A stretch of DNA of 64,000 nucleotides from an uncultured bacterium. Lineage in GTDB: Bacteria > Armatimonadota > Hebobacteria > CAIYQO01. Shown piece after piece: positions 1,398 to 45,242 of the stretch. Every line of letters begins with the position of its first letter. The stretch's first letter is position 1. A program made the position numbers and the translations under genes. The notes beneath the pieces were generated by a model. That model was not told where the DNA came from and made no database searches. It saw nothing but the letters and a program-made list of their open reading frames with translations. The DNA lies in assembly GCA_903928345.1 (NCBI GenBank), contig CAIYQO010000229.1:1351-65350 (forward strand). The letters are read 5' to 3'.

Positions 1398-2561
1398 CTA
1401 CAGGTTCAACACCTGCGAGACGCGGTAGTTGTCGATGTTGAGGGTTTCCGGTCCGCCGGTCACCTGGTAGAAGATCCAGCAGTCCTGCAGGTCCATGTAG
1501 GCGGGCGTCGCCATGCACAGGGTGCCATTCGCTGCTTTGAACTGGTTGCTCTCACCCGTGATTTTGAAGTCCATCATCTTTACCGGCCACACGGTCTGGT
1601 CGATATGGGCATATTTCCCCGTCGCGAGCGTGCCGGTATACGCGGCTTTGCTGGACAGGTTGTTCGGCGCACTTAACCCGTCACTGACATCCATATACTG
1701 CAAATAGGAATCACCCTGCGAAGATGAGGCGGTGCGTTGATACCACGGGCCCCAGGAGCCCACGCTTACCGAAGTGGCGGCCACGACACGCCGCACGTCA
1801 AACTGGGTGATGAATTCCGTGGTGACGGAGGAATTCTGCGCGAAGGCGGCCAGCATCGCGGTCTGCAGGGGGGTCATAGGGCCGCCGTTCTGGTTGTAAT
1901 ACTGCAGGCGCCAGTCAGCCCCCGTCTGCGCGGTGATCTGATAGACCTTGTTGCCGTTATCGTTGACAATGCCGGCCGTCCCCGTACCGCTCTGTTGAGT
2001 CCAGTTGAAGGGAACCACGCCGTCGTCAAAGGTATAAAGGCAGATGGTCTTCAGGTTCGGCTTGTCCAACTCGCCCAGCGCCGGGAAGATGCCCACGTGG
2101 CCGTCGGCGAAGGCGGCGATGATCTTGCCGCCGTGGTTCGAGGTGTTGTAGTCCGCCGTGGTGTAGCCGATGTTCGCCAGCGGCGCCGCGGTCGTCACCG
2201 TGTGCGTGCCGTCAAAGGTGGGCAGCGCAACGGTGGGGTCGGGCAGCTCGCCCAGCGCCGAGCCGCTCCAGGTGTTGTTGAAGCAGTAGGCGTTGCTGAC
2301 CTTCGTGCCCGCGCTGGGGCAGATGAGCACGCCCTTGTCCATGCTGATGCCGCCCCAGGCCTGGTCGGCGGTGGGCAGCATCTCGTTGTGATCCTGCGCG
2401 TACATCAGCAACGCGACGGTGATCTGCTTTTGATTGTTCAGGCACGCCGTCTGCCGCGCCTTCTCACGCGCCTTGGCGAAGACGGGGAAGAGGATGGCGG
2501 CCAGGATCGCTATAATAGCAATGACGACGAGGAGTTCGATCAGCGTAAAGCCTTTGCGCAT
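1398..2561 (-). CDS. Prepilin-type N-terminal cleavage/methylation domain protein with DUF1559 (H-X9-DG) domain.
   Basis: N-terminus [46 protein letters not shown] is a canonical type IV pilin-like leader/hydrophobic helix plus the DUF1559 start. RBS AAGGAGA 6 nt upstream. Sigma70-like promoter TTGACA-17-TACGAT upstream. Confidence 0.85.
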
Positions 2562-2593
2562 GGCATGTCTCCTTCTGAAATGATGGATAGTTT

Positions 2594-2622
2594 ATCGTAT
2601 GACCGCGCGTTCGTTTTGTCAA
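2594..2622 (-). promoter_or_regulatory. Sigma70-type promoter for the prepilin/DUF1559 gene at 2561 (minus strand).
   Basis: On the minus strand: TTGACA, 17 nt, TACGAT. The -10 lies about 30 nt upstream of RBS AAGGAGA. Confidence 0.5.
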
Positions 2623-2748
2623 GGGAGTACGCCGACTTTCTTGCCGTCCTCCGCGTCGCGCCCGACGTGTAAGAGCAGGAATTCGCGGGCACAAACGCGA
2701 AAGGAAGCGTGTCGTTGCCCAAGTGACGTTTTCATCGAGGTTGTGCTC

Positions 2749-4284
2749 ATGACGATCTATGACATGCTGGTGCGCAGTGCGGCGGGCACGCCGGGTGCGC
2801 CGCTGATCGGGTACCGCGAGCAGACGTACAGCTACGCGCAAGTGCAGGCGCTGGTGGACGGGTGCGCGGCGGGGCTGGCGGCGCTGCGCCTGCGCAAGCG
2901 GGCACGCGTGGCGGTGCTGCTCCCCAACTGCCCGCCCTTCATCATCGCCTACTTCGCCATCAACCGCCTGGGCGCCACGGTGGTGCCGCTCAACGTGCTC
3001 TACCGGCCCGACGAGGCGCGCTTCATTCTGGCCGACAGCGAGGCGGAGGCCATCATCACCGCCGAACCCTTCCGTCCACTGGTGGCGGCGCTGCGCCCGC
3101 ACCTGCCCAGACTGCAACACGTGGTGATGGTCACCGACGGCGACGTGGCGGGCGACGAGGTGGACTTCCGCACCCTCTGCCGCCATGCCCCGCACGCGGC
3201 GCCGGCGCAGTCAGAGCGCGAGACGGCGGTGATCCTCTACACCTCGGGCACCACGGGCCGCCCCAAGGGCGCGATGCTCACCAACGCGAACCTGATCGCC
3301 AACGCGCACTCCTGCTCCGGCGTGCTCGACGTCACGCCGGGCGACTGCCTGCTCTCCGCGCTGCCCCTCTTCCATGCCTTTGCCGCCACGGTGACGATGC
3401 TGCTGCCCATCCTCGTCGGCGGGCGCATCCACCTCACCGAGCGCTTCGTGCCCGCGCATACGCTGCAATTGCTGGAGGACGCGGGGGTGACGATCTTTGC
3501 CGGCGTGCCCAGCATGTTCGGCTTGATGCTGCAGATCCCGCGCGACCACCGGCCGTCGCTGGCGGCGCTGCGCACCTGTATCAGCGGCGGCGCCCCGCTG
3601 CCCCCCGACGTATGGACGGCCTTCGAAGCCGCCTTCGACGTGCGCATGGCGGAAGGGTATGGCCTGACGGAAGCCGCGCCGGTGGTGTCGGTGAACCCGC
3701 CGCTGGGGCTGCGCAAGGTGGGCAGCATCGGTCCGGCCATCCCCGACGTGGCCCTGAAGCTGATCGACGCGCGCGGACGCGCCGTGCCCGACGGGGAGAT
3801 CGGCGAGCTGTGCGTACGCGGCCCCAACGTGATGAAGGGCTACCTGAACCGCCGCGCGGAGACGAAGGACGTGCTGCGTCGCGGCTGGCTGCACACCGGC
3901 GACCTGGCGCGCCGCGACGAGGACGGCTACCTGTTCATCGTGGGACGCAAGAAGGAGTTGATAATCGTCGGCGGGCTGAATGTCTACCCCGGCGAGGTGG
4001 AGCGCGTGCTGGTGGAGCACCCCGCCGTGCTGGAAGTCGCCGCCTACGGCGTCTCCGACCCCTCGCGCGGCGAGGCGGTGTGGGCCTCCGTGGTGCTGCG
4101 CCCCGACAGTGCCGCCACCGAGAAGGAACTGCAGGCGCTCTGCCGCGAAAAGCTCGCCAACTACAAAGTGCCGCGTGGCATCGACATCCGCACCGAGTTG
4201 CCGAAAAACGCCCTCGGCAAAGTGATGCGCCACCTGCTCAGCCAGGAAATCGTCGCCCGCCAGAGCCGCCCCACGCCGGTGTGA
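2749..4284 (+). CDS. AMP-dependent synthetase/ligase (long-chain acyl-CoA synthetase, FadD-like).
   Basis: AMP-binding signature LYTSGTTGRPKGAMLTNANL, plus GYGLTEAAPVVSVNP and a TGDLARRDEDGYLFIVGRKKELIIVGGLNVYPGEVE C-terminal domain. I place the start at ATG 2749 (MTIYDMLVRSAAG) rather than at the upstream in-frame extension to 2599. Confidence 0.85.
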   Translation: MTIYDMLVRSAAGTPGAPLIGYREQTYSYAQVQALVDGCAAGLAALRLRKRARVAVLLPNCPPFIIAYFAINRLGATVVPLNVLYRPDEARFILADSEAEAIITAEPFRPLVAALRPHLPRLQHVVMVTDGDVAGDEVDFRTLCRHAPHAAPAQSERETAVILYTSGTTGRPKGAMLTNANLIANAHSCSGVLDVTPGDCLLSALPLFHAFAATVTMLLPILVGGRIHLTERFVPAHTLQLLEDAGVTIFAGVPSMFGLMLQIPRDHRPSLAALRTCISGGAPLPPDVWTAFEAAFDVRMAEGYGLTEAAPVVSVNPPLGLRKVGSIGPAIPDVALKLIDARGRAVPDGEIGELCVRGPNVMKGYLNRRAETKDVLRRGWLHTGDLARRDEDGYLFIVGRKKELIIVGGLNVYPGEVERVLVEHPAVLEVAAYGVSDPSRGEAVWASVVLRPDSAATEKELQALCREKLANYKVPRGIDIRTELPKNALGKVMRHLLSQEIVARQSRPTPV

Positions 4285-15781: not shown

Positions 15782-15847
15782 CCCCACCTCCTGTAAATCC
15801 GCGCTAGTGTACGGCGTTTGACGGAATCGGGCAAGGGGCGGTGAGGG

Positions 15848-15964
15848 AAATGCACAATGGAGAATAGAAAATGGAGAATGCACAATGAGGGAGAAGGAAT
15901 TCTAATAACGCCCTTCCTTTCCCCCCATTCTCAATTCTCCATTTTCAATTTTTCATTGTGCATT
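15848..15964. repeat. AT-rich long hairpin (about 50-bp arms) between folC (3' end) and the GH2 gene (5' end).
   Basis: aaatgcacaatggagaatagaaaatggagaatgcacaatgagggagaagg ... ccttcctttccccccattctcaattctccattttcaatttttcattgtgcattt. The folC stop codon lies in the right arm. Confidence 0.7.
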
Positions 15965-17290
15965 TACCCCTGCCCGTTCCCACCACCGCAACGCTTCGCC
16001 GACGATATACAGCGAGCCGGTGACGCAGATTACGTCTTCGGGGGCGGCGTCGGCCAGGGCGCGGGGGAGGGCGGTGGCGACGTCGGGGGCGGTAATGGTT
16101 GCAGGGTGGGTGGTCGCGGCGGCCAGCTCCGCCGGCGGCACGGCGCGGGGGGCGTTCGAGGTGGTGAGCACCAAGCCCACGGCGCGCGCGGCGAAAAGGG
16201 TGAGCATCTCCGGCCAACTCTTGTCGCGGCTGAACCCGAGCACGAAGCGCACGGGGCGTCCGGGGAAGTGTCGGTCGAGCGCCGCCAGCAGCACCTCCGC
16301 CGCGGCGGTGTTATGCGCGCCGTCCAGCAGCAGCAGCGGGTGTTCGCGCAGCACCTGCATGCGCCCCGGCCACTGCACCGCGGCCAGCCCCTGACGCACG
16401 GCGTTGGGTGAAACGGACACCGTGGTCATCAGCAGCTCCGCCAGCCCGATGGCCACCGCGGCGTTTTCCTGCTGGTGCTCGCCGAGGAGCGGGCAGGTGA
16501 GGTCGCGGTAGGTGTGGCGCACGCCGTGCACGGTGAAGCGTTGCCCGGTCGGCGAGGAAAGGGCGCTCGGTTCCAGCAGAATATCCCGGCCCACGCGCAG
16601 CAGCGGGCTGTCGTGCTCGGTGGCGACGCGCGCGATGACGGCATCCACCGCCGGCTCCTGCGGCGCGCTGACCACCGGCACCCCGGGCTTGATGATGCCT
16701 GCCTTCTCCGCGGCGATGGCCGTCGTGGTGGCGCCCAACTCCGCCACGTGATCCAGCGCGATGCGCGTGATGGCCGTCGCCAGCGGCGTCACCACGTTCG
16801 TCGCGTCCAGCCGCCCGCCCATGCCCGTTTCGAGCACGGTGATGTCCACCCCCTGCCGCGCGAACCACAGGAAGGCCAGAATGGTGATCGCTTCGAAAAA
16901 GGTGATCGTCTCCCCGGTGTCGCGCGCCACGGCGGCGATGACCGGCTGCACCTCACGGGATAGGGCGAGGAATTCCGCTTCGGAGATGAGCGTGTCGTCT
17001 ACGCGCAGGCGTTCGCGTACGGTGACCAGGTGGGGTTTCGTGAACAGCGCCGTGCGCAGCCCGGCGGCACGCAGCATGGCCGCGAGCATGGCGGCGGTGG
17101 ACCCTTTGCCCTTGGTGCCCGCGATGTGCGCCACGCGCAGCGCGCGGTGCGGATCGCCCAGGCGCGCCAGCACGGCATACACGCGGTCCAGGCTCAAGTA
17201 GGTAGCCGTGGGCGCGTGCGCCGGGCGCGCTTCATAATCGGTTAGCGCGGTCAAGTACGTGACCGCGTCGGCAAAGGTATGCACGACCAC
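15953..17290 (-). CDS. folC: Bifunctional folylpolyglutamate synthase/dihydrofolate synthase (Mur ligase family).
   Basis: HIAGTKGKGST P-loop of the Mur ligase family. Length and overall architecture match FolC. Confidence 0.8.
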   Translation of the reverse strand: MVVHTFADAVTYLTALTDYEARPAHAPTATYLSLDRVYAVLARLGDPHRALRVAHIAGTKGKGSTAAMLAAMLRAAGLRTALFTKPHLVTVRERLRVDDTLISEAEFLALSREVQPVIAAVARDTGETITFFEAITILAFLWFARQGVDITVLETGMGGRLDATNVVTPLATAITRIALDHVAELGATTTAIAAEKAGIIKPGVPVVSAPQEPAVDAVIARVATEHDSPLLRVGRDILLEPSALSSPTGQRFTVHGVRHTYRDLTCPLLGEHQQENAAVAIGLAELLMTTVSVSPNAVRQGLAAVQWPGRMQVLREHPLLLLDGAHNTAAAEVLLAALDRHFPGRPVRFVLGFSRDKSWPEMLTLFAARAVGLVLTTSNAPRAVPPAELAAATTHPATITAPDVATALPRALADAAPEDVICVTGSLYIVGEALRWWERAGVNAQ

Positions 17291-20071: not shown

Positions 20072-20263
20072 CCTCTTTGCTTCGGCCCCGGAGGGGCCGC
20101 CCAGGGTGCAAACCCTGGGTGGTGTAATCATCGAATCTTCCGCGCCGAGGCGGGGCGCCGCAAGGCTTCGCGCCGCCCCTCCAGGGCGAATTGGCATTGC
20201 AACAACCCGTATCCCAGGGCTTGCGCCCTGGGCTAAAATACGTTGCCCCTCCGGGGCAAAGGG
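20072..20263. repeat. Nested-palindrome intergenic element (REP/BIME-like) between the mlaE-like gene and murA.
   Basis: Outer IR ctttgcttcggccccggagggg / cccctccggggcaaaggg. Inner hairpins cccagggtgcaaaccctggg and cccagggcttgcgccctggg. Confidence 0.65.
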
Positions 20264-20272
20264 AAACAGCGC

Positions 20273-22328: not shown

Positions 22329-22490
22329 TTTTGGGGAGGGCGAGCGTCCCTGCGAGCCGCGCGCGAGGCAACCGTAGTTGACAAAAAGACGGTCTGGACG
22401 TGAAATCCATGCACACGCCCAGACCGTCTTCTGCTATCGATTCCAGTTCATTCACATGCGGCTCGCGGGGACGCTCGCCCTCCCAAGGTT
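22329..22490. repeat. Palindromic element with GGCTCGCGGGGACGCTCGCCCTCCCAA terminal inverted repeats (family R1).
   Basis: ttggggagggcgagcgtccctgcgagccgc at about 22329 and gcggctcgcggggacgctcgccctcccaa at about 22460 form inverted copies. The same termini occur at 58997-59205 and 63359-63388. Confidence 0.75.
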
Positions 22491-24885: not shown

Positions 24886-25407
24886 ATGGAAATCAGTTCG
24901 GTAAGCGGCCAGTCATCGGCTGTGCAACAGACTACGGGGACGCGGGCCAATATGCGGCAGGCCTTCAAAGACCTGGACAGTGCGTTGCAGTCCGGTGATC
25001 TGGACGCGGCGAAAAAGGCGTTTGCGCAGATTCAGCAAAATGCGCCGAAGAACGCGAGTGGAAAGTCCAACCCCATGCAGGCGAAGATGGATGCCCTGGG
25101 CAAGGCGTTGGACGCGGGGGACCTGCAGGCCGCCCGCACCGCCTACGCCGACGTGAAGACGGCCATGGCCCAGCGCCCCGCCGGCGGGCACGGCGGTCAC
25201 GGCGGGCATCCGGCGGGCGGAGGCAGCGCGGCGAGTTCGAGCAGCAGCACGAGCAGCAGCAGCAGCGTAACTTACGACCCGCGGGACACGAACAAGGACG
25301 GCAAGGTGTCCGCCGAAGAGGCGCTGGTATATAGCATCGCGCACCCCTCGACGACCGAAGGCGACACCACGGCGACCACGCAGAGCGGCCTCGACGCCCT
25401 GGCGTAA
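24886..25407 (+). CDS. Small hypothetical protein with internal repeats, a Gly/His-rich tract and a C-terminal EF-hand-like Ca-binding loop.
   Basis: Two repeats (SGDLDAAKKAFAQIQQ / AGDLQAARTAYADVKT), GGHGGHGGHPAGGG, a Ser-rich linker, and DTNKDGKVSAEE matching the 12-residue EF-hand loop (D1,N3,D5,G6,V8,E12). RBS GGAGGGG. Confidence 0.5.
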   Translation: MEISSVSGQSSAVQQTTGTRANMRQAFKDLDSALQSGDLDAAKKAFAQIQQNAPKNASGKSNPMQAKMDALGKALDAGDLQAARTAYADVKTAMAQRPAGGHGGHGGHPAGGGSAASSSSSTSSSSSVTYDPRDTNKDGKVSAEEALVYSIAHPSTTEGDTTATTQSGLDALA

Positions 25408-25415
25408 CGAGGTTC

Positions 25416-25540
25416 GGGAGAATGGGGGAGGTGGGGAATGGGAGACCGCCGGGCTCCCGCCCTGTTCCAAACGGTGACTAAGAACACACCTGATCTGTGG
25501 CCGCTCCGCAAAGGAGGCCCTCCCCCACTCCCCCATTCTC
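25416..25540. repeat. MITE-like element, family gagaatgggggaggtggggaatggg, copy A (3' flank of the ADH gene, plus-strand coordinates).
   Basis: gggagaatgggggaggtggggaatggg...ccgggctcccgccctgttccaaacggtgactaagaacacacctgatc...ccctcccccactcccccattctc. Termini are mutually inverted. Confidence 0.8.
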
Positions 25541-25542
25541 AG

Positions 25543-26583
25543 TTACGGTGTCATCACGATCTTGATATGCGTGCGGCCCGTCATCGACATCTGCAGGGCG
25601 TCGGCCCAGCGCTCCAGGGGGAAGGTGTGGGTGACCATCTCCTGCACCTGCACCAGGTGCGCGTTGACCATGCGGGCGGCGCGTTCGAAGGTGCGCGCCT
25701 GGGCGAAGGAACCGAGGACGGTCAGCTCCCGGCGGAAGATATCGTACGGGTTCATCCGGATCGTCGCCGCTTCCGGCGCCACGCCGTAGATGACGACCTT
25801 GCCGCCGTATTTGGCGAATTGCGGCATCGCCTCGATGATCTCCGGCACGCCGGTGGCGTCGATCACGATGTCGAACCCGTGTGGATATTGCGCCTTGATC
25901 GCCGCGATGTGGGCCTGCGGATCGGCGGGATCGGGCTGGATGCCCTCGGCCTGCAGTAAGCGCGCCGCCAGATCGAGCTTGGCCTTATTGCGGTTCACGG
26001 CGACGAGTTTCGTCACGCCGGCCTGGCGCAGCAGTTGCGCGAGGAGCAAGCCGGTGGGGCCGAGGCCGAAGATCAGCGCCTCGTCGCCCAGCCGCGGGCG
26101 GATAACGTCCAGGCCGTGCACCGCGCAGGCGGTAGGCTCCACCAACGCCCCTTCCAGGTAGCTGATATCGTCCGCCAGCCCGTAGACCTGCTCCTCATCG
26201 ACCCGCACGTATTCCGCGAAACCGCCGGGCGCGTTGCCGCCCTGCGCGTAGAGCTGTTCGCACAGCAGCATTTCGCCGCGGCGGCAGAAGTAGCAGTTGC
26301 CGCAATGGCGCAGGTTGTCGGCCACCACCCGGTCGCCCACGCGGAAGCGCGTCACCGCGTCACCCACGGCGGCCACCTCGCCGGCGAATTCGTGGCCGGG
26401 GATAAGCGGGTAGTCGGAGAAGAATTCGCCGTGGTGAATGTGCACGTCCGTCTTACACAACCCGCAGGCATGCACGCGGATGAGCACGTCGCGTTCGCGC
26501 GGCTCCGGTACCGGCACTTCGGTGACGGAGAAGGTTTCCGGCGCCGTATAGACCAGCGCTTTCATCAGACGACCTCGTTCCAT
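25543..26583 (-). CDS. Zinc-dependent alcohol dehydrogenase (MDR family).
   Basis: MKALVYTAPETF...GLCKTDVHIHHGEF...GHEFAGEV (GHE catalytic Zn motif), structural Zn Cys cluster CGNCYFCRRGEMLLC, NAD-binding GLGPTG. Start chosen at ATG 26583 (RBS AAGGAG). The longer ORF to 26820 reads through a repeat element. Confidence 0.8.
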   Translation of the reverse strand: MERGRLMKALVYTAPETFSVTEVPVPEPRERDVLIRVHACGLCKTDVHIHHGEFFSDYPLIPGHEFAGEVAAVGDAVTRFRVGDRVVADNLRHCGNCYFCRRGEMLLCEQLYAQGGNAPGGFAEYVRVDEEQVYGLADDISYLEGALVEPTACAVHGLDVIRPRLGDEALIFGLGPTGLLLAQLLRQAGVTKLVAVNRNKAKLDLAARLLQAEGIQPDPADPQAHIAAIKAQYPHGFDIVIDATGVPEIIEAMPQFAKYGGKVVIYGVAPEAATIRMNPYDIFRRELTVLGSFAQARTFERAARMVNAHLVQVQEMVTHTFPLERWADALQMSMTGRTHIKIVMTP

Positions 26584-26677
26584 TGGGATCTCCTTGTGGT
26601 ACAGTCCGCTCGACAGGTAAGCGTTTGTATATAGCAATAGCAGGCGGTTTGATAGTATTATACCAGGAAAAGCGGTA

Positions 26678-26836
26678 GGAGAATGGGGGAAGCGGGGAAT
26701 GGGGGTATGGGGAACGGCCGGGCTCCTGCCCTGTTCCAAACGGTGACTAAGATCACACCTGATCGGTCGTCGCCTATCCATGCCGGCCTTCCCCCACTTC
26801 CCCATTCTCCCATGCCCCATTCCCCACTTCCCCCCG
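26678..26836. repeat. MITE-like element, same family, copy B, in direct orientation relative to copy A; between the ADH start and hypF.
   Basis: ggagaatgggggaagcggggaatggg...ccgggctcctgccctgttccaaacggtgactaagatcacacctgatc...cccccacttccccattctcc. About 85% identity to copy A over the core. Confidence 0.8.
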
Positions 26837-26854
26837 GCGCGCTATAATGCCCGC

Positions 26855-29104
<2,250 letters not shown>

Positions 29105-29282: not shown

Positions 29283-29381
29283 TAACTAGTGCCGGTTGTC
29301 ACGAACTCCGACCGCCTGCATCGTCGCACAACCCTATTCGCCCCGGACGAGGCACCCTCTCGCCGCAAAGGAGCGTACCGA

Positions 29382-29975
29382 ATGGACGAGATCACGCGCA
29401 CGGTCAAATACGAGGCCGACACCGACCCGCATTTTGCCGAGGAGATCGCCGGCATCGCGCGCGGGGAGACGCTGCGCGCCTGCATCCAGTGCGGCAACTG
29501 CAGCGGCGCCTGCCCGGTGAGCCCGTACATGGATTACACGCCGCGCCGCATCATCGCCATGACGCGCGCCGGCTTCAAGCGGGAAGCGCTCTCCTCCACC
29601 ACCATCTGGCTCTGCGCCTCCTGCTACAACTGCACGGTGGAGTGCCCCAAGCAGATCCGCATCACCGACGTGATGTACGCGCTGAAGCAGAAGGCCATCA
29701 AGGAGCGGCTCTACCCGAAACGCTTCCCCGTCGCCGTGCTTGCCCGCGAGTTCTCCGCTGCCGTGCGCCAGTTCGGGCGTAACAGCGAGCTGTGGCTCAT
29801 CATCTACCTCTACCTGAAGACTAACCCCTTCGCCATGCTCAAGCAATCGATCCTCGGCCTGCGCCTCTTCCTGCAGGGACGCATGGGCTTGAAGCGCGAG
29901 CGCATCCCCATGGGCACGGGCAAAAAGGGCGATCTGCAGACGATTTGGAACGCACTCGACCGCGCCGACCGGTAA
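29382..29975 (+). CDS. hdrC: Heterodisulfide reductase subunit C-like (4Fe-4S dicluster).
   Basis: Two ferredoxin-type motifs CIQCGNCSGACP and CASCYNCTVECP. Size and context (precedes hdrB/hdrA) fit HdrC. RBS AAGGAG. Sigma70-like promoter about 100 nt upstream. Confidence 0.8.
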   Translation: MDEITRTVKYEADTDPHFAEEIAGIARGETLRACIQCGNCSGACPVSPYMDYTPRRIIAMTRAGFKREALSSTTIWLCASCYNCTVECPKQIRITDVMYALKQKAIKERLYPKRFPVAVLAREFSAAVRQFGRNSELWLIIYLYLKTNPFAMLKQSILGLRLFLQGRMGLKRERIPMGTGKKGDLQTIWNALDRADR

Positions 29976-29988
29976 GGAAGGGACCGCC

Positions 29989-30873
29989 ATGAATCACCTG
30001 TACTACCCCGGTTGCTCGCTGAAAAGCACCGGACGCGCCTACGAGGAATCGCTGCTGGCGGTGTGCGCCACGCTGGGCGTGGGGCTCACCGAGCTGCAGG
30101 ACTGGAACTGCTGCGGCGCCACCAGCTACATGGCGATCGACGAGGTGAAGGCCTTCGCGCTGGCGGCGCGCAACCTGGCCCTTGCCGAGGAGCAGGGGAA
30201 GGTCGGTCCGGGCACCCCGACGGTGGACCTGGTGGCCCCCTGCGCCGCGTGCTACCTGGTGCTTGCCAAGGCGCAGCACTGCCTGGAGGAGAACAAGGAG
30301 GTCGGTGGGAAGATCACCGCCGCGCTGGCCGCCGCGCAACTGCAGTATACGGGCCGCGTGGTGATGCGCCACCCCCTCGATCTGTTCACCAACGCGCTGG
30401 GGCTGGACGCCATCAAGGCGCAGGTGACCAAACCGCTGACCGGCCTGAAGGTGGCCTGCTACTACGGCTGCCAGATCGTGCGCCCCTACGCCACCTTCGA
30501 CGACCAGTACCACCCGATGACGATGGATCACCTGGTGACCGCGCTGGGCGGCACCCCGGTGGACTGGCCGCTGAAGACGCGCTGCTGCGGCGGGTCGCTC
30601 ACCGGCACGGTACAGGAGGTCGGCCTGCGTATGAGCTACCACCTGCTCAAGGAAGCGCGCAAGCGCGGTGCCGACGTGCTGCTTACCGCCTGCCCGCTGT
30701 GCCAGTTCAACCTGGAATGCTACCAGGATCCGATGAAGGCGCTGTTCCCCGATCACGAGCCGCTGCCCGTGCTGTACTTCACCCAACTGATGGGCCTGGC
30801 ACTCGGCCTGGAGCGCGCGCGCCTGGGCCTGCAGCGCCTCTTCGTGCCCTTCCGCCAGCCGGTCGGCGTATAA
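29989..30873 (+). CDS. hdrB: Heterodisulfide reductase subunit B-like (two CCG domains).
   Basis: CCG-domain cysteine patterns (YYPGCSL...NCCGA... and YYGCQ...TRCCGG...CPLCQFN). Confidence 0.85.
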   Translation: MNHLYYPGCSLKSTGRAYEESLLAVCATLGVGLTELQDWNCCGATSYMAIDEVKAFALAARNLALAEEQGKVGPGTPTVDLVAPCAACYLVLAKAQHCLEENKEVGGKITAALAAAQLQYTGRVVMRHPLDLFTNALGLDAIKAQVTKPLTGLKVACYYGCQIVRPYATFDDQYHPMTMDHLVTALGGTPVDWPLKTRCCGGSLTGTVQEVGLRMSYHLLKEARKRGADVLLTACPLCQFNLECYQDPMKALFPDHEPLPVLYFTQLMGLALGLERARLGLQRLFVPFRQPVGV

Positions 30874-30960
30874 CCCGGATAGTTTACGATGTCACGGACT
30901 GCCGGGCTATCAGAGGCATTATTCGAAATGTTCTGAATAATGCGGGATAAAGGAGCCCCC

Positions 30961-32958
30961 ATGAGCGAGACGATGCAATCCGCGGAACCCCGCGTCGGCG
31001 TCTACGTCTGCCACTGCGGCATCAATATCGCCGCCAAGGTGGACATCGCCGCCGTGGTGGAGTTCGCCAAGACGCTACCCTACGTCATCGTGGTGCGCGA
31101 TTACAAGTTCATGTGCTCCGACCCCGGTCAGGAGCTGCTGCAGCAGGACATCAAGGAGCTGGGCCTCAACCGCATCGTGGTGGCCTCCTGTTCTCCGCTG
31201 ATGCACGAAGCGACCTTCCGCCACGCCACCGAAGCCGCCGGGCTGAACCAGTTCTACTTCCAGATGGCGAACATCCGCGAACACGTGAGCTGGGTCACGG
31301 CGGACAAGGCGCTGGCCACACGCAAATCGCAGGCGCTGGTCTCCGCCGCCGTGCGCCGCGTGGTGCTCAACGAGCCGCTGGAGCACCAGAAGGTGCCGGT
31401 GAAGCCGAACGTGCTGGTGGTCGGCGGCGGCATCGCCGGCATCCACGCCGCGCTGACCCTCGCCAACGCCGGCAAGCAGGTCACCCTAGTCGAGCGCGAG
31501 CCGACCATCGGCGGCCACATGGCGAAGTTCGACAAAACCTTCCCCACCCTCGACTGCGCCGCGTGCATCCTCACCCCGAAGATGTCCATGGTGAGGAGCC
31601 ACCCCAATATCACCATGCTCACCTACGCCGAGGTGGTCGGGGTGGAGGGGTACGTCGGCAACTTCACCGTGAAGGTGAAGAAGAAGGCGCGCTACGTGCA
31701 CGAAGAGCTGTGTGTGGGCTGCAACGAGTGCGTCGAGGCGTGCGTGTACAAGGAAGGCCGCTTCACGGACACCTTTAACGAGGGATTGAGCAAACGCAAA
31801 CCCGTCTACATGCCCTTCCCGCAGGCGACGCCCTCCGTGGTGCTCATCGATCCGGAGTCGTGCATCGAGCTAAAGACGGGCAAGTGTAAAAAGCAATGCG
31901 CCACCGCCTGCACGCGCAACGCCATCGACTTTACGATGACGGACGAAATCGTCGCGCTGGAGGTGGGCGCCATCATCATCGCCACCGGCTTCCAGACCTT
32001 CGACGCCACCCGCATCCCGCAGTACGGCTACGGCAAGTTCCCCAACGTCTACACCAGCCTCGAGGTCGAGCGCCTGGTGAACGCCTCCGGCCCGACCGGC
32101 GGCGAGGTGCAACTGCGCGACGGGAGCACGCCGAAGCGCGTGGGGATCATCCACTGCGTAGGCAGCCGCGACGAGAAGACCAACCGCCACTGCTCGCGCG
32201 TCTGCTGCATGTACTCCCTCAAGCTCGCCCACCTCATCCACGAGCGCACCGACGCGGAGGTGTATAACCTCTACATCGACATGCGCACGCCGGGCAAGGG
32301 GTATGAGGAGTTCTACGACAAGCTGCTCAAGGAGGGCGTCAACTTCATCCGCGGGCGCGCCGCCGAAGTCACGGACTGGACGGTGACCCCGGAGGAAGAG
32401 GGCAAGCTGGTCATCCGCGCCGAAGACACCCTCATCGGCGTAGTGCGCCGCATCCCGGTGGACATGGTGGTGCTCTCCGTGGGGCTGGAAGCGCACGCCG
32501 ACGCCGATGAGGTGCGCCGCCTCTTCAACATCTCCTGCAGCAAGGAAGGCTGGTTCCTGGAGCGTCACCCGAAGCTCGCGCCCGTCTCCACCTTCACCGA
32601 CGGCATCTTCATCGCCGGCGCCTGCCAGGGGCCGAAGGACATCCCCGACACGGTGGCGCAGGCCGGCGCGGCGGTAGCCGAGGCGCTGGCGCTGGTGGAC
32701 CGCGGCTTCGTGGAGCTGGAGCCCAACACCGCGTTCATCACCAAGGAACTGTGCTCCGGTTGCCATACCTGCATCGCCATGTGCCCGTTCAGCGCCATCC
32801 GCTACAACAAAGAAGCGGGCGTGGCGGAGATCAACCCCGCGCTGTGCAAAGGCTGCGGCACCTGCGTCGCCGCCTGCCCGTCCGGCGCCGCCCAGCAACA
32901 CCTGTTCACCGACGAGCAGATCTTCCAGGAAATCGAAGGAGTGCTCAATTATGTCTGA
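30961..32958 (+). CDS. hdrA: Heterodisulfide reductase subunit A-like FAD/Fe-S flavoprotein (putative bifurcating subunit).
   Basis: FAD-binding VLVVGGGIAGIHAAL. Several 4Fe-4S motifs (CVGCNECVEAC, CSGCHTCIAMCP, CKGCGTCVAACP). N-terminal VYVCHCGINIA. 665 aa. Confidence 0.9.
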   Translation: MSETMQSAEPRVGVYVCHCGINIAAKVDIAAVVEFAKTLPYVIVVRDYKFMCSDPGQELLQQDIKELGLNRIVVASCSPLMHEATFRHATEAAGLNQFYFQMANIREHVSWVTADKALATRKSQALVSAAVRRVVLNEPLEHQKVPVKPNVLVVGGGIAGIHAALTLANAGKQVTLVEREPTIGGHMAKFDKTFPTLDCAACILTPKMSMVRSHPNITMLTYAEVVGVEGYVGNFTVKVKKKARYVHEELCVGCNECVEACVYKEGRFTDTFNEGLSKRKPVYMPFPQATPSVVLIDPESCIELKTGKCKKQCATACTRNAIDFTMTDEIVALEVGAIIIATGFQTFDATRIPQYGYGKFPNVYTSLEVERLVNASGPTGGEVQLRDGSTPKRVGIIHCVGSRDEKTNRHCSRVCCMYSLKLAHLIHERTDAEVYNLYIDMRTPGKGYEEFYDKLLKEGVNFIRGRAAEVTDWTVTPEEEGKLVIRAEDTLIGVVRRIPVDMVVLSVGLEAHADADEVRRLFNISCSKEGWFLERHPKLAPVSTFTDGIFIAGACQGPKDIPDTVAQAGAAVAEALALVDRGFVELEPNTAFITKELCSGCHTCIAMCPFSAIRYNKEAGVAEINPALCKGCGTCVAACPSGAAQQHLFTDEQIFQEIEGVLNYV

Positions 32959-33415
32959 CACCCCCGCCTTCGAGCCGCGTATCGTGGCCTTCTTTTGCAA
33001 CTGGTGCACCTACACCGCCGCCGACCTGGCGGGCACGGCGCGCCTGACCTACGCGCCCAACGTGCGCGTGGTGCGCATCATGTGCTCGGGCCGCCTCGAC
33101 CCGCAGTTCGTGGTCACGGCCTTGCGCCAGGGCGCCGACGGCGTGCTCATCGGCGGCTGCCACCCCGGCGATTGCCACTACCAGGAAGGCAACTACAAGA
33201 TGCTGCGCCGCTTCCACCTGCTGAAGCGCATGCTCAAGCAGTTCGGCATCGACGATCAGCGCGTGCGCCTGGAGTGGATTTCCGCCTCCGAGGGCGACAA
33301 GGTGCAGCGCGTCATCAACGAGATGGTGGCGCAGGTGCGCGACCTCGGCCCGTTGGCGCTGGTCGGCAAACCAACCCCGCACCCGGACGCAAGCGAGAAG
33401 CACGCCGCCGCGTAG
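32951..33415 (+). CDS. mvhD: Methyl-viologen-reducing hydrogenase delta subunit (MvhD)-like [2Fe-2S] protein.
   Basis: RIVAFFCNWCTYTAADLAGTARL...CSGRLDP...LIGGCHPGDCHYQEGN matches MvhD/FlpD. Start overlaps the hdrA stop (ATGTCTGA). Confidence 0.85.
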   Translation: MSDTPAFEPRIVAFFCNWCTYTAADLAGTARLTYAPNVRVVRIMCSGRLDPQFVVTALRQGADGVLIGGCHPGDCHYQEGNYKMLRRFHLLKRMLKQFGIDDQRVRLEWISASEGDKVQRVINEMVAQVRDLGPLALVGKPTPHPDASEKHAAA

Positions 33416-33430
33416 CGAAGGAGACACCCG

Positions 33431-34396
33431 ATGACAAAACCAAAAGTCGGCTTTTACTGGTGTGCCTCCTGCGGGGGGTGTGAAGAAGCGGTGGTCGATC
33501 TGCACGAGGCGATCCTCGACGTGGTCGCCGCGGTGGACATCGTCTTCTGGCCGTGCGCGATGGATTTTAAGCGCACGGATGTGGAGGCGATGGCCGACGG
33601 CGAGCTGGCGGTCTGCTTCATCAACGGCGCCGTGCGCACCAGCGAGCAGTTCGAGATGGTCGAGCTGTTGCGCCGCAAGGCGGGGGTGGTTATCGCCTTC
33701 GGCGCCTGCGCGCAGAGCGGCGGCATCCCCGGGCTGGCGAACTTCACCTCGAAGGCTGCCATCCTGGCGAACGTGTATGAGGACACGCGCACCACGGTGA
33801 ACCCGCACAAGACTTACCCGCAGGCCACGGTGCAGGTGCCGGAAGGCACGCTGACGCTGCCCGTGCTCGACGAGACGGTACGCGCGCTGGGGCAGGCGAT
33901 CCCGGTGGACTATTACCTGCCCGGCTGCCCGCCGCCCGCGAAACTCATCGCCGACGCGGTGGGGGCCATCCTCGCCGGCACTTTGCCCGCGCCGGGCAGC
34001 GTGCTGGCACCCAACGTGGGTGTTTGCCACGAGTGCACGCGCAAGGAGACGAAGCCGGAGAAGATGCTCGTCACCCAGTTCAAGCGCCCGCATCAGGTGC
34101 TCATCGACCCCGCCCAGTGCCTGCTGGCGCAGGGATTGGTCTGCCTGGGGCCGGATACGCGCAGCGGCTGCGGCGCCGCCTGCCCGGCGGGCAATATGCC
34201 CTGCACCGGCTGCCTGGGCGCGCTGGATCAGGTGCGCGACTTCGGCGCCAAGGCGCTCTCCGGCCTGGCGTCCGTGCTGGACGCCGGGGAGGACGCCGCC
34301 ATTGACGCGGGCCTGGCCGGCGTGCCCGATCCCGCCGGCACCTTTTATCGTTACAGCCTGCCCGCCTCCGAGCTTTTCGCGAAGCTGCCGGAGTAG
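33431..34396 (+). CDS. mvhG: [NiFe]-hydrogenase small subunit (group 3, MvhG-like).
   Basis: N-terminal FYWCASCGGCEEAVVDL proximal-cluster motif, GACAQSGGIPG, and C-terminal cluster cysteines CHECTRKE...CPAGNMPCTGCLG. RBS AAGGAGA. Confidence 0.85.
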   Translation: MTKPKVGFYWCASCGGCEEAVVDLHEAILDVVAAVDIVFWPCAMDFKRTDVEAMADGELAVCFINGAVRTSEQFEMVELLRRKAGVVIAFGACAQSGGIPGLANFTSKAAILANVYEDTRTTVNPHKTYPQATVQVPEGTLTLPVLDETVRALGQAIPVDYYLPGCPPPAKLIADAVGAILAGTLPAPGSVLAPNVGVCHECTRKETKPEKMLVTQFKRPHQVLIDPAQCLLAQGLVCLGPDTRSGCGAACPAGNMPCTGCLGALDQVRDFGAKALSGLASVLDAGEDAAIDAGLAGVPDPAGTFYRYSLPASELFAKLPE

Positions 34397-34408
34397 AGGA
34401 ATTTTTCC

Positions 34409-35875
34409 ATGAGCCAGAAGATCACCATCGATCCGATCACCCGCCTGGAAGGGCACGGCAAGGTCGATATCTTCCTCGATGACGCGGGGAACGTCGAACG
34501 CGCCTACCTGCAGATTCCCGAGTTGCGCGGGTTCGAGAAGTTCGCGGAAGGCCGTCCGGTGGAGGACATGCCGCAGATCACCTCGCGCATCTGCGGCGTC
34601 TGCCCCACCGCGCACCATATGGCCGCGTCCAAGGCCGTCGACGCCGTCTTCCACGTGGAGCCATCGGTGCCCGGGCGCAAAATTCGCGACCTCGTCTACA
34701 GCATCTTCTTCGTGGAAGACCATGCCTTGCACTTCTACTACCTGGGCGGACCGGACTTCATCGTCGGCCCCACGGCCCCCAAGGCGGAGCGCAACATCCT
34801 GGGCGTGCTGGGCAAGGTGGGCCTCGAGATCGGTAAAGAGGTGATCGGCCTGCGCCGGCAACTGCGCGAACTCATCGCGCTGGCGGGCGGCAAGGTGATC
34901 CACCCAGTACTCGGCCTGCCCGGCGGCGTGGCGAAGGCGCTGACGAAGGAGGACCAGGCGAAGTTCATCGCGGCGGCCGACCACGCGGTAGAGTTCGCCG
35001 AGTTCACGCTGAAGATCTTTCACGACATCGTGCTGAAGAACCCCGACTACGTGGCGTGGATCACCAACGACATCAACACCCACGCGACCTATTACATGGG
35101 CCAGGTGGACGCGAAGAACCGGGTGAACTTCTACGACGGGCAGATCCGCGTGGTGGCGCCGGACGGCAAGGAGTTCCTCAAATTCCCCGCCGCCGACTTC
35201 CACCAGCACGTGGCTGAGCAGGTGGAGCCGTGGAGCTACATCAAGTTCTGCTACCTGCGCGCGGTGGGCTGGAAGGGCTTCACCGACGGCGCGGACAGCG
35301 GCGTCTACTGCGTCGCCCCGCTGGCGCGCCTCAACGCCGCCGACGGCATGGCCACCCCGAAGGCGCAGGCCGCCTACGAGGAGATGTACGCCCTACTCGG
35401 CGGCAAGCCGGTGCACCACACGCTGGCGAACCACTGGGCGCGCCTGATCGAACTGCTCTACGCCGCCGAACGCATGCAGGAGCTGGCCAACGACCCGGAC
35501 ATTATCGACCCCAACGTGCGCACGCTGCCCACTGCCACGCCGACGGAAGGCGTGGGCATCGTGGAGGCCCCGCGCGGCACGCTGGTGCACTACTACGCCA
35601 CCGACGCCGACGGACTGGTGACGCGGGCCAACCTCATCGTCGCCACGCAGAACAATGCCGCGCGCATCGCCATGTCGGTGGATAAGACGGCGCGCGGGGT
35701 GATCAAAAACGGCAAGGTGGACGACGGCATCCTGAACATGGTGGAGATGGCCTTCCGCGCCTACGACCCGTGTCACGGCTGTGCCACCCACGCGCTGCCC
35801 GGGCAGATGCCGCTGCGGCTGGCTATCTACAACGCCGCGGGCGTACAAATCGACGAGATCCGACGGGACGGGTGA
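34409..35875 (+). CDS. mvhA: [NiFe]-hydrogenase large subunit (group 3c, MvhA-like).
   Basis: N-terminal Ni-Fe ligand motif RICGVCPTAHH and C-terminal DPCHGCATHA motif, with a short extension after the His. 488 aa. Confidence 0.9.
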   Translation: MSQKITIDPITRLEGHGKVDIFLDDAGNVERAYLQIPELRGFEKFAEGRPVEDMPQITSRICGVCPTAHHMAASKAVDAVFHVEPSVPGRKIRDLVYSIFFVEDHALHFYYLGGPDFIVGPTAPKAERNILGVLGKVGLEIGKEVIGLRRQLRELIALAGGKVIHPVLGLPGGVAKALTKEDQAKFIAAADHAVEFAEFTLKIFHDIVLKNPDYVAWITNDINTHATYYMGQVDAKNRVNFYDGQIRVVAPDGKEFLKFPAADFHQHVAEQVEPWSYIKFCYLRAVGWKGFTDGADSGVYCVAPLARLNAADGMATPKAQAAYEEMYALLGGKPVHHTLANHWARLIELLYAAERMQELANDPDIIDPNVRTLPTATPTEGVGIVEAPRGTLVHYYATDADGLVTRANLIVATQNNAARIAMSVDKTARGVIKNGKVDDGILNMVEMAFRAYDPCHGCATHALPGQMPLRLAIYNAAGVQIDEIRRDG

Positions 35876-36336
35876 TGCGTACTCTCGTGCTGGGCCTGGG
35901 TAACGACCTGATCGCCGACGACGGCCTCGGCCTGCTCGCCGCGCGCGAGTTGGCGGTGACGCACGGGCACCTGGCCGACGTGGTGGAGACCGGGCTGGCG
36001 GGCCTCGCGCTGCTCGACCTGTTTCTCGATTACGACCGCGCGCTGGTCATCGATGCCATCCAGACGGGCACGCATCCGCCGGGGACGATCCTCGCCATTC
36101 GCGGCGACGAACTCTCCGCGGTGGTCGCCCCCTCGCCGCACTACGCGGGGCTGCCGGAGCTGTTCGCGCTGGCGCAGGCGATGGGCCTCGCCTTCCCCCG
36201 CGACGTGCGCATCCTCGCCATGGAAGTCGAGGACGCCGCCACCATCGGCGCCGGCCTCACCCCCGCGGTGGCCGCCGCCCTGCCGACGCTGGTCGCGCGG
36301 GCGGGGGCGATGCTCGAAAACTGGCCGGGGGAGTGA
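35875..36336 (+). CDS. Hydrogenase maturation endopeptidase (HycI/HoxW/HyaD family).
   Basis: MRTLVLGLGNDLIADDGLGL...GLALLDLF...LVIDAI is typical of hydrogenase C-terminal processing proteases. ATG overlaps the mvhA stop (ATGA). Confidence 0.8.
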   Translation: MRTLVLGLGNDLIADDGLGLLAARELAVTHGHLADVVETGLAGLALLDLFLDYDRALVIDAIQTGTHPPGTILAIRGDELSAVVAPSPHYAGLPELFALAQAMGLAFPRDVRILAMEVEDAATIGAGLTPAVAAALPTLVARAGAMLENWPGE

Positions 36337-36400
36337 AAATTGGGGACTGGCTCGAATTTTCACGGTGGATGATAGATGCCCTTTAATTTGTAACTGCTGC

Positions 36401-36573
36401 TATGGTCCGCGGGGTAGCGGCGACTGAAGTCGCAGCTCTTTGGCCTTTCGGCCAACCGTCCGCCTACACGGACGGGAGAAGGAAAAGAATTTACGATGTT
36501 GGTGCATCCCCGCAGGGGGACGCTTGGCCGATGAGGCCAAACAGCTGCGATTTCAATCGCCAGGGTCGTCAAT
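36401..36573. repeat. Palindromic MITE-like element, family ggcgattgaaatcgcagct, copy 1 (between the hydrogenase protease gene and hypA).
   Basis: Internal TIRs gcgactgaagtcgcagctctttggcc / ggccaaacagctgcgatttcaatcgcc. Its reverse complement aligns with the copy at 39268-39444 at both ends. Confidence 0.8.
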
Positions 36574-36700
36574 CGTACCGATAGTCATTTATCAAAGAAC
36601 ATCTATCATCGTTGTAAAGCTGCGACAGGCACACTTGATCCGATCACGAATAGGATGGGCAACAAACTGAGACGCGTCAGTTCTCCTCGTCGGAAAAGTC

Positions 36701-36781
36701 GGGACAGCCACCACTTTTCCGCTCCCGAGTTCGGCGTTCGAAAATGGATCGATGAAAAGTGGTGGCAGTCCCGCCTTTTTA
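36701..36781 (+). promoter_or_regulatory. Leader hairpin (19-bp perfect stem, 34-nt loop, followed by a T-run) immediately upstream of the hypA RBS; candidate attenuator or regulatory RNA structure.
   Basis: gggacagccaccacttttc (36701-36719) pairs with gaaaagtggtggcagtccc (36754-36772), followed by gccttttta. GGAGG RBS at 36786 and hypA ATG at 36799. Confidence 0.4.
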
Positions 36782-36798
36782 CCTGGAGGTGTCCGCTC

Positions 36799-37197
36799 AT
36801 GCATGAACATGCCGTGGTGGCCGGCCTCATCGACGCGCTGAACGCTCAGCTCGCCGCGCAGGGGATCACGCAGGTGGCCGAAGTGCGCGTGCGTCGCAAC
36901 AGCGCCTTCGCCGCCGCGCCGATGCAAATGGCCTTCCAGATGCTCTCCCCCCACACCCCCCTCGACGGCGCCGCGCTGGTGGTGGAGGAGTCCTATTATC
37001 GCCACATCTGCCCCAACGGCAGTTGCGGATTCCGGCAGGTCGTCACCGCCGACGACCTGATCGGCCACCTGTACATCTGCCCGGAGTGCGGCACCGCGGA
37101 GGAGATCGACGAAGCGCACGGCATCGAGGTGCTCAGCGTCACCGTCGACGACACCGTCATCCCGGTGGCCGTACATCCGCACCCGCACGAGCACTGA
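36799..37197 (+). CDS. hypA: Hydrogenase nickel incorporation protein HypA.
   Basis: MHEHAVVAGLIDALNAQ N-terminus (MHE Ni-binding start). Zn-binding CPNGSC...CPECG motifs. C-terminal His-rich tail HPHPHEH. RBS GGAGG. Confidence 0.8.
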   Translation: MHEHAVVAGLIDALNAQLAAQGITQVAEVRVRRNSAFAAAPMQMAFQMLSPHTPLDGAALVVEESYYRHICPNGSCGFRQVVTADDLIGHLYICPECGTAEEIDEAHGIEVLSVTVDDTVIPVAVHPHPHEH

Positions 37198-37314: not shown

Positions 37315-37608
37315 ATGGCGATGATGAATAACCTGCCCTCGGTGGCGCGTTGCGACGTGAACGACTGCTTTTACAACCGCGAGAGCAACTGTCACGCGCC
37401 GGCCATCAACATCGGCGGCGAGCACCCCAATTGCGACACCTTCATCCCCACGGCCAACCACATCGGCCGCATGGAGCAGGGCATGGTAGGCGCCTGCCAC
37501 GTGCACCTGTGCAAGTGGAACACCGACCTGACCTGCCAGGCCAGCAACATCGTGGTGGCCCACCACAACCTGCACGCGGACTGCGAAACGTTTACGCCGG
37601 CGAAATAG
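37315..37608 (+). CDS. DUF1540 domain protein (two Cys/His-rich repeats).
   Basis: Two internal repeats each with 4 Cys: CDVNDCFYNRESNCHAPAINIGGEHPNCDTF and CHVHLCKWNTDLTCQASNIVVAHHNLHADCETF. RBS GGGAGG 7 nt before the ATG. Confidence 0.7.
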   Translation: MAMMNNLPSVARCDVNDCFYNRESNCHAPAINIGGEHPNCDTFIPTANHIGRMEQGMVGACHVHLCKWNTDLTCQASNIVVAHHNLHADCETFTPAK

Positions 37609-37624
37609 GGAACAGGAAATAGGA

Positions 37625-37672
37625 AACAGGGAACGGGTTGGTGCGCTGGCACCAACCCGTTCCCTGTTTCCC
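37625..37672. terminator. Bidirectional terminator hairpin between the convergent DUF1540 and tlpA-like genes.
   Basis: aacagggaacgggttggtgc gc tggcaccaacccgttccctgtt gives about a 20-bp perfect stem. Confidence 0.6.
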
Positions 37673-37685
37673 GTTCCCAGTTCCC

Positions 37686-45000: not shown

Positions 45001-45242
45001 GTACTCGTAATCGACCCCCTGCCCCGAAGGGGCGTGCGATTATAGCCACGGGCGGAGCCCGTGGTATGCGGGACAGAAAACGTCCGAGCCCCGACGGGGC
45101 GACAGAACACGTGTCTGCCGCCCCGTCGGGGCTCGGTGTTTCCTCCGTACCCGACCACGGGCTGCGCCCGTGGCTAGCATCTGCGGCCCCTTCGGGGCAA
45201 TAGTCGATTACGAGCACGATTACGAGCACGAGCACGATTCCG
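45001..45242. repeat. Nested-palindrome element, family R2 (gccccgaaggggcg / ccacgggcggagcccgtgg / gagccccgacggggcgacag), copy 1.
   Basis: Outer IR tcgtaatcgac...gccccgaaggggcg / gccccttcggggc...gtcgattacgag. Homologous (about 80%) to 63201-63388. Followed by short tandem cacgattacgagcacgagcacgatt. Confidence 0.8.

Follow-up and report, generated by a model that had tools for sequence, protein, structure and literature searches.

Two direct copies of a modular palindromic repeat around an alcohol dehydrogenase gene of an uncultured Armatimonadota bacterium

The locus and its two palindromic copies

The sequence analysed here is a 64-kb stretch (the window; positions 1,351 to 65,350 of contig CAIYQO010000229.1) of the genome of an uncultured bacterium assigned to the Armatimonadota, in which a gene for a zinc-dependent alcohol dehydrogenase (ADH; 25543-26583, minus strand, 346 aa) is bracketed by two copies of a short palindromic element. 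The ADH gene encodes both the ADH_N and ADH_zinc_N domains and has an AAGGAG sequence 7 nt before its ATG. It is convergent with a 173-aa gene of unassigned function (24886-25407, plus strand) and divergent from hypF, which encodes a carbamoyltransferase with all HypF domains (26855-29104, plus strand, 749 aa from a GTG codon). Copy A (25416-25540, plus strand, 125 nt) separates two convergent stop codons, that of the 173-aa gene (25405-25407) 8 nt before its start and that of ADH (25543-25545) 2 nt beyond its end. Copy B (26678-26836, plus strand, 159 nt) occupies the intergenic region from which ADH and hypF diverge, and starts 94 nt upstream of the ADH ATG (26583).

A repeat search of the window returned copy A and positions 26685-26809 as a single direct-repeat family of 125 nt with 80% identity without gaps, and gapped alignment extended copy B to its full length, which includes extra short tandem units in both arms. 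A 35-nt core had 2 matches in the window at no more than 1 mismatch, compared with 0 in 100 dinucleotide-preserving shuffles. Both copies possess terminal inverted repeats, as is typical of a miniature inverted-repeat transposable element (MITE): the arms of copy A (25418-25437 and 25521-25540) are 20 nt long and 90% complementary, and those of copy B (26685-26717 and 26802-26834) are 33 nt long and 79% complementary. As RNA, copy A folds at -64 to -66 kcal/mol (z of -2.6 to -2.8 versus shuffled controls) and copy B at -78 to -87 kcal/mol (z of -5.6 to -6.2). Since the asymmetric core is found on the plus strand in A and B alike, the two are in direct orientation, and the alignments, arms and folds together bear out an earlier note on this DNA, which had described two direct palindromic copies around ADH. 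A and B are paralogous copies of one non-coding palindromic element, and their six-frame translations gave no match when compared with 5.8 billion proteins.

Copy A is also flanked by the mutually complementary hexamers CGTAAC (25403-25408) and GTTACG (25542-25547), which contain the stops of both convergent genes and extend the copy A hairpin across the two stop codons. This arrangement may be a coincidence, or the element may have supplied the stops.

Internal modules of the element

The identity between A and B differs by segment, being 74% in the left arm, 97% in a 30-nt unit, 94% in the next 17 nt (the extension), 50% in the right interior and 91% in the right arm, and the longest stretch identical between the two is 25 nt. 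The order of modules within each copy is a unit of approximately 31 nt, the 17-nt extension and a variable segment, all enclosed by G-rich and C-rich arms that pair into a stem of 25-35 bp. In copy A the G-rich left arm (25416-25442, plus strand) is composed of the short tandem units GGGAGAAT, GGGGGAGGT and GGGGAAT and matches a canonical G-quadruplex pattern. It is followed by the conserved unit GCCGGGCTCCCGCCCTGTTCCAAACGGTGACT (25448-25479, plus strand; nhmmer E 3.8e-11), which is the portion held in common with the metagenome family described below, by the extension TAAGAACACACCTGATC (25479-25495, plus strand), which is without conservation in the metagenome copies, and by the C-rich right arm (25518-25540, plus strand), complementary to the left one. 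The corresponding unit of copy B, GCCGGGCTCCTGCCCTGTTCCAAACGGTGACT (26717-26748, plus strand; nhmmer E 2.9e-10), is identical at 34 of 34 positions to that of the metagenome locus L035.

The arms are assembled from the building blocks GGGGAAT, GGAGAAT and GGGGGAAG, the number of which differs between A and B. They fit canonical G-quadruplex patterns (3 of the 13 such motifs in the window fall in the A and B arms), and among all unit copies examined G-rich/C-rich arms were confined to these two. A search of GTDB genomes with an arm-pair pattern (GAGAATGGGGN and CCCCATTCTC separated by 90 to 120 nt) found 25 loci, all with interiors unrelated to the core. Many of these lie between genes and are hairpins 110-140 nt long, their arms being (GGGAATG)n-like or (CAGGAGAATG)n-like, and their hosts are Lysobacterales, Verrucomicrobia and other groups. 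Three lines of evidence, namely these arm hairpins with unrelated interiors, two metagenome contigs (L001 and L002, see below) that keep 22 nt of the copy B arm before passing into another interior, and further hairpins of the window whose arms consist of other tandem units, lead us to conclude that arms and core are separable modules. The tandem-unit style of hairpin arm is widespread across GTDB genomes and fits no named family that we found.

Hairpins with GGGAATG/GAGAATG or CAGGAGAATGGGGG arms were seen in L007, L015, L018, L020, L022, L024, L025 and L029 (Lysobacterales and others), and in the same style in L010, L027, L028 and L030 (Verrucomicrobia/Planctomycetes). One metagenome-assembled genome of Dokdonella carries 3 hairpins with tandem-unit arms on separate contigs. 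The window also holds, beside A and B, other hairpins with arms of different tandem units.

A dispersed unit of approximately 31 nt

The core unit, GCCGGGCTCCCGCCCTGTTCCAAAC(A/G)GTGAC, is sharply bounded. Fuzzy scanning and the alignment of 33 copies gave its sequence as GCCGGGCTCCCGCCC(T/A)GTTCCAAACAGTGAC(T), with the consensus falling from at least 90% to approximately 40% within 1-2 bases on either side. A profile search (nhmmer) of the window found exactly 3 copies, which are those in A and B and a partial one, CCGGGCTCGCGCCCTGTTCCACACAG (53960-53986, minus strand; E 5.8e-5), located between genes, upstream of one for a cupin, and devoid of G/C arms; in the window, then, the unit occurs only solo. 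An exact, window-specific 20-mer of the A/B core (TGTTCCAAACGGTGACTAAG) gave 0 matches in JGI metagenomes and 0 in GTDB genomes, where the search for the core covered only this strict 20-mer and not the general 31-nt unit. A 22-mer shifted upstream of the first 20-mer (GGGCTCCNGCCCTGTTCCAAAC) was found in 15 JGI contigs from five metagenome datasets.

These 15 contigs hold at least 30 copies of the unit, have a GC content of 46-64% and reach a density of up to 5 copies per 8-14 kb. The units lie between housekeeping genes, and their neighbours include those for YchF, PilB, RsmE, a nitroreductase, a DEAD-box helicase, a radical-SAM enzyme and an ECF sigma factor, and both orientations relative to neighbouring genes are seen. 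Inverted doublets are found 9 times in the JGI loci, with spacers of 20-103 nt, and at 3 distinct loci (L034, which equals L047; L037; and L040) the unit forms both inverted ends of an element of approximately 200 nt with a conserved interior; singlets occur too. The element of the window therefore belongs to a dispersed repeat family. The earlier note had proposed counting the copies in the genome; there are further ones of the unit, with its third, partial window copy and its metagenome copies, but the composite of arms plus unit is represented by A and B only among the sequences searched. Two internal mini-hairpins are possible in the unit (GGGC-NNNN-GCCC and CTGTT-CCA-AACAG) with its most variable position in a loop, and there are variants, e.g. 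T15A and A25T, that break these small stems. The conservation of the unit across genomes of very different base composition we found mildly surprising.

No resource that we searched appears to describe this unit, although the general kind of element is well known. Rfam, searched with the whole window at gathering thresholds and with the locus at E up to 10, returned only sub-threshold matches to generic hairpins resembling miRNA precursors, and the metagenome doublets likewise gave generic hairpin matches only and no CRISPR direct-repeat family. In IMG/VR a 17-mer had 14 matches, none of which reached the 30-nt unit and which we regard as chance matches, and two 22-mer variants had 0. Plasmid and phage collections gave no match to the unit, and literature searches with sequence strings gave unrelated primer matches only. 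The unit, dispersed and apparently undescribed, is common to several uncultured lineages and enlarges the known set of REP- and MITE-like repeats.

Two further candidates were considered for the unit and rejected: a CRISPR repeat or solitary repeat unit, there being no direct-repeat arrays among the 15 JGI loci, and the end of a Tn7-like element or CRISPR-associated transposon (CAST), prompted by repeated GTGAC(T/A) in L034 and L045, where housekeeping genes adjoin units of only approximately 200 nt. In L037 a gene for a 1059-aa PLD-nuclease/SNF2-helicase protein (557-3736), defence-like in character, is bracketed by 31-nt units at 81-397 and 3846-4000, which are accompanied by conserved 95-nt spacers in a tandem-like arrangement.

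Population variants and related loci

Over 1.2-1.5 kb, three short ENA metagenome contigs (L001, L002 and L006) match the window at 100% DNA identity, and all have ends within A or B. L006 terminates inside the unit of copy A, as does one end of L002. L001 and L002 extend across ADH and 22 nt into copy B, remaining 100% identical to the window up to position 26699, inside the left arm, and then continue into 39-51 nt of unrelated sequence found nowhere in the window. As the same junction is present in two independent assemblies, 26699/26700 probably marks a genuine structural variant that breaks inside copy B and may be an insertion, an inversion or a different neighbour. The repeat explains why low-coverage metagenome assemblies break at A and B, and copy B is a place where contigs end and where otherwise identical genomes have a structural breakpoint.

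Every contig that carries the 173-aa gene or ADH has the same gene order, with no form from which ADH is deleted. The relatives of ADH (77% and 73% identity) have other, unrelated gene settings that include neither hypF nor the element, and the contig with the closest hypF relative begins 197 nt upstream of that gene. As for presence or absence of the element, contig L032 is free of it upstream of hypF but has only 81% protein identity to the HypF of the window, and L001 and L002 offer a breakpoint rather than a clean empty site. Comparison of related loci, which the earlier note had suggested as a check on ADH between the repeats, did place the ADH relatives in different contexts but uncovered no empty site. 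The resemblance to a mobilisable or recombination-prone cassette, remarked on in the same note, does not make ADH a demonstrated cassette, there being neither an empty site nor a deletion variant, and the relatives of ADH lying in unrelated contexts without the element. The closest named homologues of ADH are from Armatimonadota and its GC content at third codon positions (GC3) is inside the range of the neighbouring genes, and for these reasons we regard ADH as an ordinary resident gene.

Upstream of the 77% ADH relative, at 9600-9900 of contig L003, there are several copies in both orientations of another repeat, (G/A)GTTT(T/C)GGGGAC(T/A)GACA(T/C)CGAAACTCC, which indicates that related genomes carry other intergenic repeat families.

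Gene starts and promoters beside copy B

The open frames of copy B give rise to over-long gene calls on both sides. The longest open reading frame (ORF) of ADH runs from 25543 to 26820 (425 aa), yet an identical (100%) database protein (P0001) is 346 aa long and homologues are of approximately 340 aa, so that the longer frame is an artefact of open frames in copy B. The long hypF ORF starts at ATG 26780 and encodes 774 aa, in which the acylphosphatase domain begins at residue 34; between this ATG and GTG 26855 there is no other start codon, and the nearest relative (P0122, 81% identity) has 751 aa. On these three grounds GTG 26855 is likely the hypF start. The public hypF record (P0121) is the 774-aa form, which owes its first 25 residues to the C-rich arm of copy B, and its start codon is likely mis-annotated through the repeat. 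Both shifted starts (ADH 26583 and hypF 26855), and the artefactual nature of the extensions, had been put forward in the earlier note and are upheld here by the lengths of P0001 and P0122 and the position of the acylphosphatase domain. The repeat accordingly explains why the public hypF has 774 aa instead of approximately 749 aa, as well as the over-long ADH ORF.

A TATAAT sequence (26843-26848, plus strand) is found 6 nt before the hypF GTG. It had been thought to be supplied by copy B, but the hexamer lies outside the repeat, even as the earlier note had delimited it, and is conserved in L032, in which neither unit nor arms have a copy. Upstream of hypF the L032 sequence TTATAATGCCGTCGTGGA aligns with CTATAATGCCCGCGTGGA of the window, the kept motif being TTATAATGCC..CGTGGA. 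Its conservation in an element-free contig implies that TATAAT is ancestral to the hypF upstream region, or possibly belongs to the first codons of hypF. The stretch from TATAAT to GTG (window 26843-26857; L032 204-218) is conserved and without a Shine-Dalgarno sequence, which suggests, from the sequence, that the hypF mRNA might be leaderless. Alternatively the conserved stretch could be coding, as in a JGI gene call that starts 18 nt further upstream.

On the ADH side an extended -10-like sequence, TGGTATAAT (26657-26665, minus strand), is a putative promoter; approximately 74 nt separate it from the ATG downstream and 13 nt from the left end of copy B, outside the repeat, so that copy B occupies the gap between two outward-facing -10-like boxes. 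A strict sigma-70 consensus scan of 25300-27000 found 0 sites and no -35/-10 pair. A terminator scan of the same region found 0 terminator-like sites, the hairpins being far longer than usual and without a T run.

Comparison with known repeat systems

The element resembles the REP, BIME and REPIN repeats of E. coli and Pseudomonas, which are mobilised by RAYT, in having a sharply bounded unit of approximately 30 nt scattered intergenically among housekeeping genes, in its inverted doublets with short variable spacers and long hairpins, in its decayed singlets, in lacking a target-site duplication or adjacent transposase, and in its mosaic joining with other modules. It differs from them in that the unit is without a 5' GTAG and is not itself a strong palindrome (the consensus GCCGGGCTCCCGCCCTGTTCCAAACAGTGAC contains no GTAG and only two internal stems of 4-5 bp), in that the window has no RAYT gene, and in that the unit spans genomes of 46-66% GC, whereas REPs are usually species- or genus-specific. 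The unit in A and B is moreover solo, nested within separate G/C-rich arms. With the Correia elements of Neisseria, RUP and BOX of Streptococcus and ERIC MITEs it shares a non-coding body of 125-159 nt with inverted terminal arms of 20-35 nt, an intergenic position near gene ends and promoters, a hairpin if transcribed, the capacity to alter promoter context, and a record of annotation and assembly artefacts. Unlike these families it has no target-site duplication (TA in Correia), no cognate insertion sequence with matching ends was found, and the arms of A and B are made of number-variable tandem units rather than fixed inverted repeats for transposase binding.

An integron cassette (an ORF with its attC site) would likewise present one gene between imperfect palindromes 57-160 nt long that point the same way, have conserved ends and vary in the centre. 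However, the 64 kb contain no intI integrase, no attI and no cassette array, only one gene being bracketed, and ADH has a promoter-like sequence and ribosome-binding site of its own. Of the attC sites R'' (RYYYAAC) and R' (GTTRRRY), GCGTAAC...GTTACGG around copy A is a partial match and copy B has nothing comparable. The Acido-Lenti-1 RNA motif (RF01687) is similar to the 31-nt unit as a small hairpin motif in the same genomes that is solo in the window and an inverted pair elsewhere (L044), but its sequence is unrelated, and A and B match no Rfam model. A Rho-independent terminator differs from the A and B hairpins through its U-tract. Membership in the named families therefore fails on their defining features, namely the target-site duplication, a cognate transposase in the 64 kb or beside the metagenome units, GTAG, and the attC core sites with their integrase.

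Origin and possible roles of the copies

On balance we think it probable that A and B are two composite copies of an interspersed palindromic repeat that is short, non-coding and non-autonomous and belongs to the MITE or REP/BIME/REPIN kind. One composite would have been copied into the neighbouring intergenic region, by mobilisation in trans or by local duplication or gene conversion, and ADH would thereby have been left between two direct copies. Copy A would be transcribed into the 3' ends of both convergent genes as a hairpin of approximately -65 kcal/mol, which might act as a 3'-end barrier or stabiliser rather than as a canonical terminator, and copy B could change the upstream sequence and spacing of the promoters of the divergent ADH and hypF. 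The direct repeats might mediate rare deletion of ADH, with no more than 25 nt of identical sequence in one stretch.

Several observations weigh against a repeat of this kind. The flanks of A (..GGTTC / AGTTA..) and of B (..GCGGTA / GGCGCG.. or CCATG..) have no common direct repeat and hence no target-site duplication; no transposase, RAYT or integrase domain is encoded in the 64-kb window; and no transposase lies beside any metagenome unit examined (L035-L047). The MITE label given in the earlier note is consequently apt for a non-coding palindromic member of a dispersed repeat family but fails in the strict sense, which calls for target-site duplication and transposase. Known copies are also few, with 2 composite copies and 1 partial unit in the window and no further composite anywhere searched. 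For a REP-type repeat it is unusual that the unit keeps at least 93% conservation in genomes whose GC content ranges from 46 to 66%, which could reflect a selected binding site, and the terminator scan showed copy A to be without a U-tract.

The small number of composites might instead mean that nothing was ever mobile, and that a single hairpin, with the unit as an older resident sequence, was copied once across ADH by slippage, template switching, unequal recombination or gene conversion. The two composites do lie in adjacent intergenic regions in the same orientation, without target-site duplication or transposase and with arms whose differences amount to entire tandem units, a hallmark of slippage, and the composite was found in no public collection searched. 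By our own estimate, two of 3 units would be adjacent by chance among approximately 55 intergenic regions with P ~0.1, which hints at local copying without being compelling. We nevertheless hold a purely local origin to be unlikely, because copies of the 31-nt unit are clearly scattered, both inside single genomes and from one genome to another, because a single duplication followed by neutral decay would not give segment identities that range from 97% to 50%, and because the copy B arm is joined to another interior in an otherwise DNA-identical population. Slightly less likely still is a selected cis-acting site or structured RNA, in which the unit would be a binding or processing site for a protein or RNase, or part of a small RNA or 3' untranslated region, with terminator- or insulator-like arms and both copies kept to delimit or regulate a monocistronic ADH. 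Such selection would account for the conservation and sharp edges of the unit, its two small hairpins with the most variable position in a loop, the placement of copy A exactly between two convergent stop codons and the stronger-than-shuffled folds, and Acido-Lenti-1 has a like distribution; but no Rfam family matches, the unit is found in both orientations and mostly as inverted doublets (typical of a DNA repeat and not of an RNA gene), T15A and A25T break the small stems, copy B, between its outward-facing -10 boxes, may be untranscribed, and neither hairpin has the U-tract of a terminator.

Two more readings give the direct orientation of the copies a function. That A, ADH and B form a mobilisable cassette like a composite transposon or integron-type cassette, with site-specific or homologous recombination between the direct copies excising or inserting ADH, is in our view highly improbable. 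It would fit the bracketing of a single gene by direct repeats, the different genomic contexts of the ADH relatives, the structural breakpoint inside copy B, the loose resemblance of CGTAAC...GTTACG around copy A to the attC R''/R' boxes, and the single genes between same-orientation units in L037 and L036. Against it stand the lack of an integrase or transposase in 64 kb, the absence of AAC/GTT boxes from copy B, the invariant gene order with no deletion form, the shortness of the longest identical stretch (25 nt), and the hairpin doublets present in most intergenic regions of the metagenome contigs, where bracketing of a gene is trivial. Only a slim chance attaches to the bolder proposal that some unidentified recombination or transposition system, spreading horizontally, recognises the unit GCCGGGCTCCCGCCCTGTTCCAAACAGTGAC and that direct copies of the unit delimit excisable single-gene segments (ADH here, and the PLD-SNF2 gene in L037) without attC or IntI, the G/C arms with their G-quadruplex potential being a second, independently evolving module. 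Should the unit prove to be a recognition site for a recombinase or transposase, or a conserved site of protein binding, a previously unknown system of mobility or regulation would lie behind it, but none of the data presented here require such a reading, and a non-autonomous interspersed repeat remains our preferred account.

Other hairpin repeats and genes of the window

Modular hairpin repeats crowd the intergenic regions of this Armatimonadota-like genome. Hairpins with tandem-unit arms are found at 15845-15968, 37608-37685, 53766-53928 and 62245-62394, with arm units of GGAGAAT/GAAAATG, GGGAACA/GGAAATA, GCAAAGG and CACAGAT, respectively, and the distance between the arms is 88-89 nt in the latter two versus 83-84 nt in A and B. 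A two-copy family with GGGAGGGCGAGCGTNCCNGCGAGCC arms lies at 22334-22484 and 58998-59203 (also 63367-63381). Another two-copy family (45020-45199 and 63227-63366) is composed of nested modules, with GCCACGGGCGGAGCCCGTGG hairpins around CCGAGCCCCGACGGGGCGACAGA palindromes, and two short contigs from ENA, L062 and L063, have ends at its 63227 member or close to it.

Acido-Lenti-1 is found in the window at 20213-20258 (plus strand), inside a larger hairpin region (20073-20269), and scores 47-51 bits versus a gathering score of 37. In L044, a contig that also has the 31-nt unit, it forms an inverted pair (1393-1438, minus strand, and 1541-1586, plus strand) 102 nt apart. In these genomes, then, Acido-Lenti-1 behaves like a REP-type module.

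Downstream of copy B, hypF heads an hdrCBA-mvhDGA-type [NiFe] hydrogenase cluster, which after hypF (29289-37197) encodes HdrC-like, HdrB-like (CCG) and HdrA-like proteins, MvhD (FlpD), the small and large subunits of a [NiFe] hydrogenase, and HypA. This Mvh/Hdr-type cluster is syntenic in L032, with the same order. Finally, a 600-aa ORF at 60433-62235 (plus strand) contains ADH_N at residues 61-136 and ADH_zinc_N at residues 367-510, and the gap of approximately 230 residues between these domains is an unusually long insert for a medium-chain dehydrogenase.

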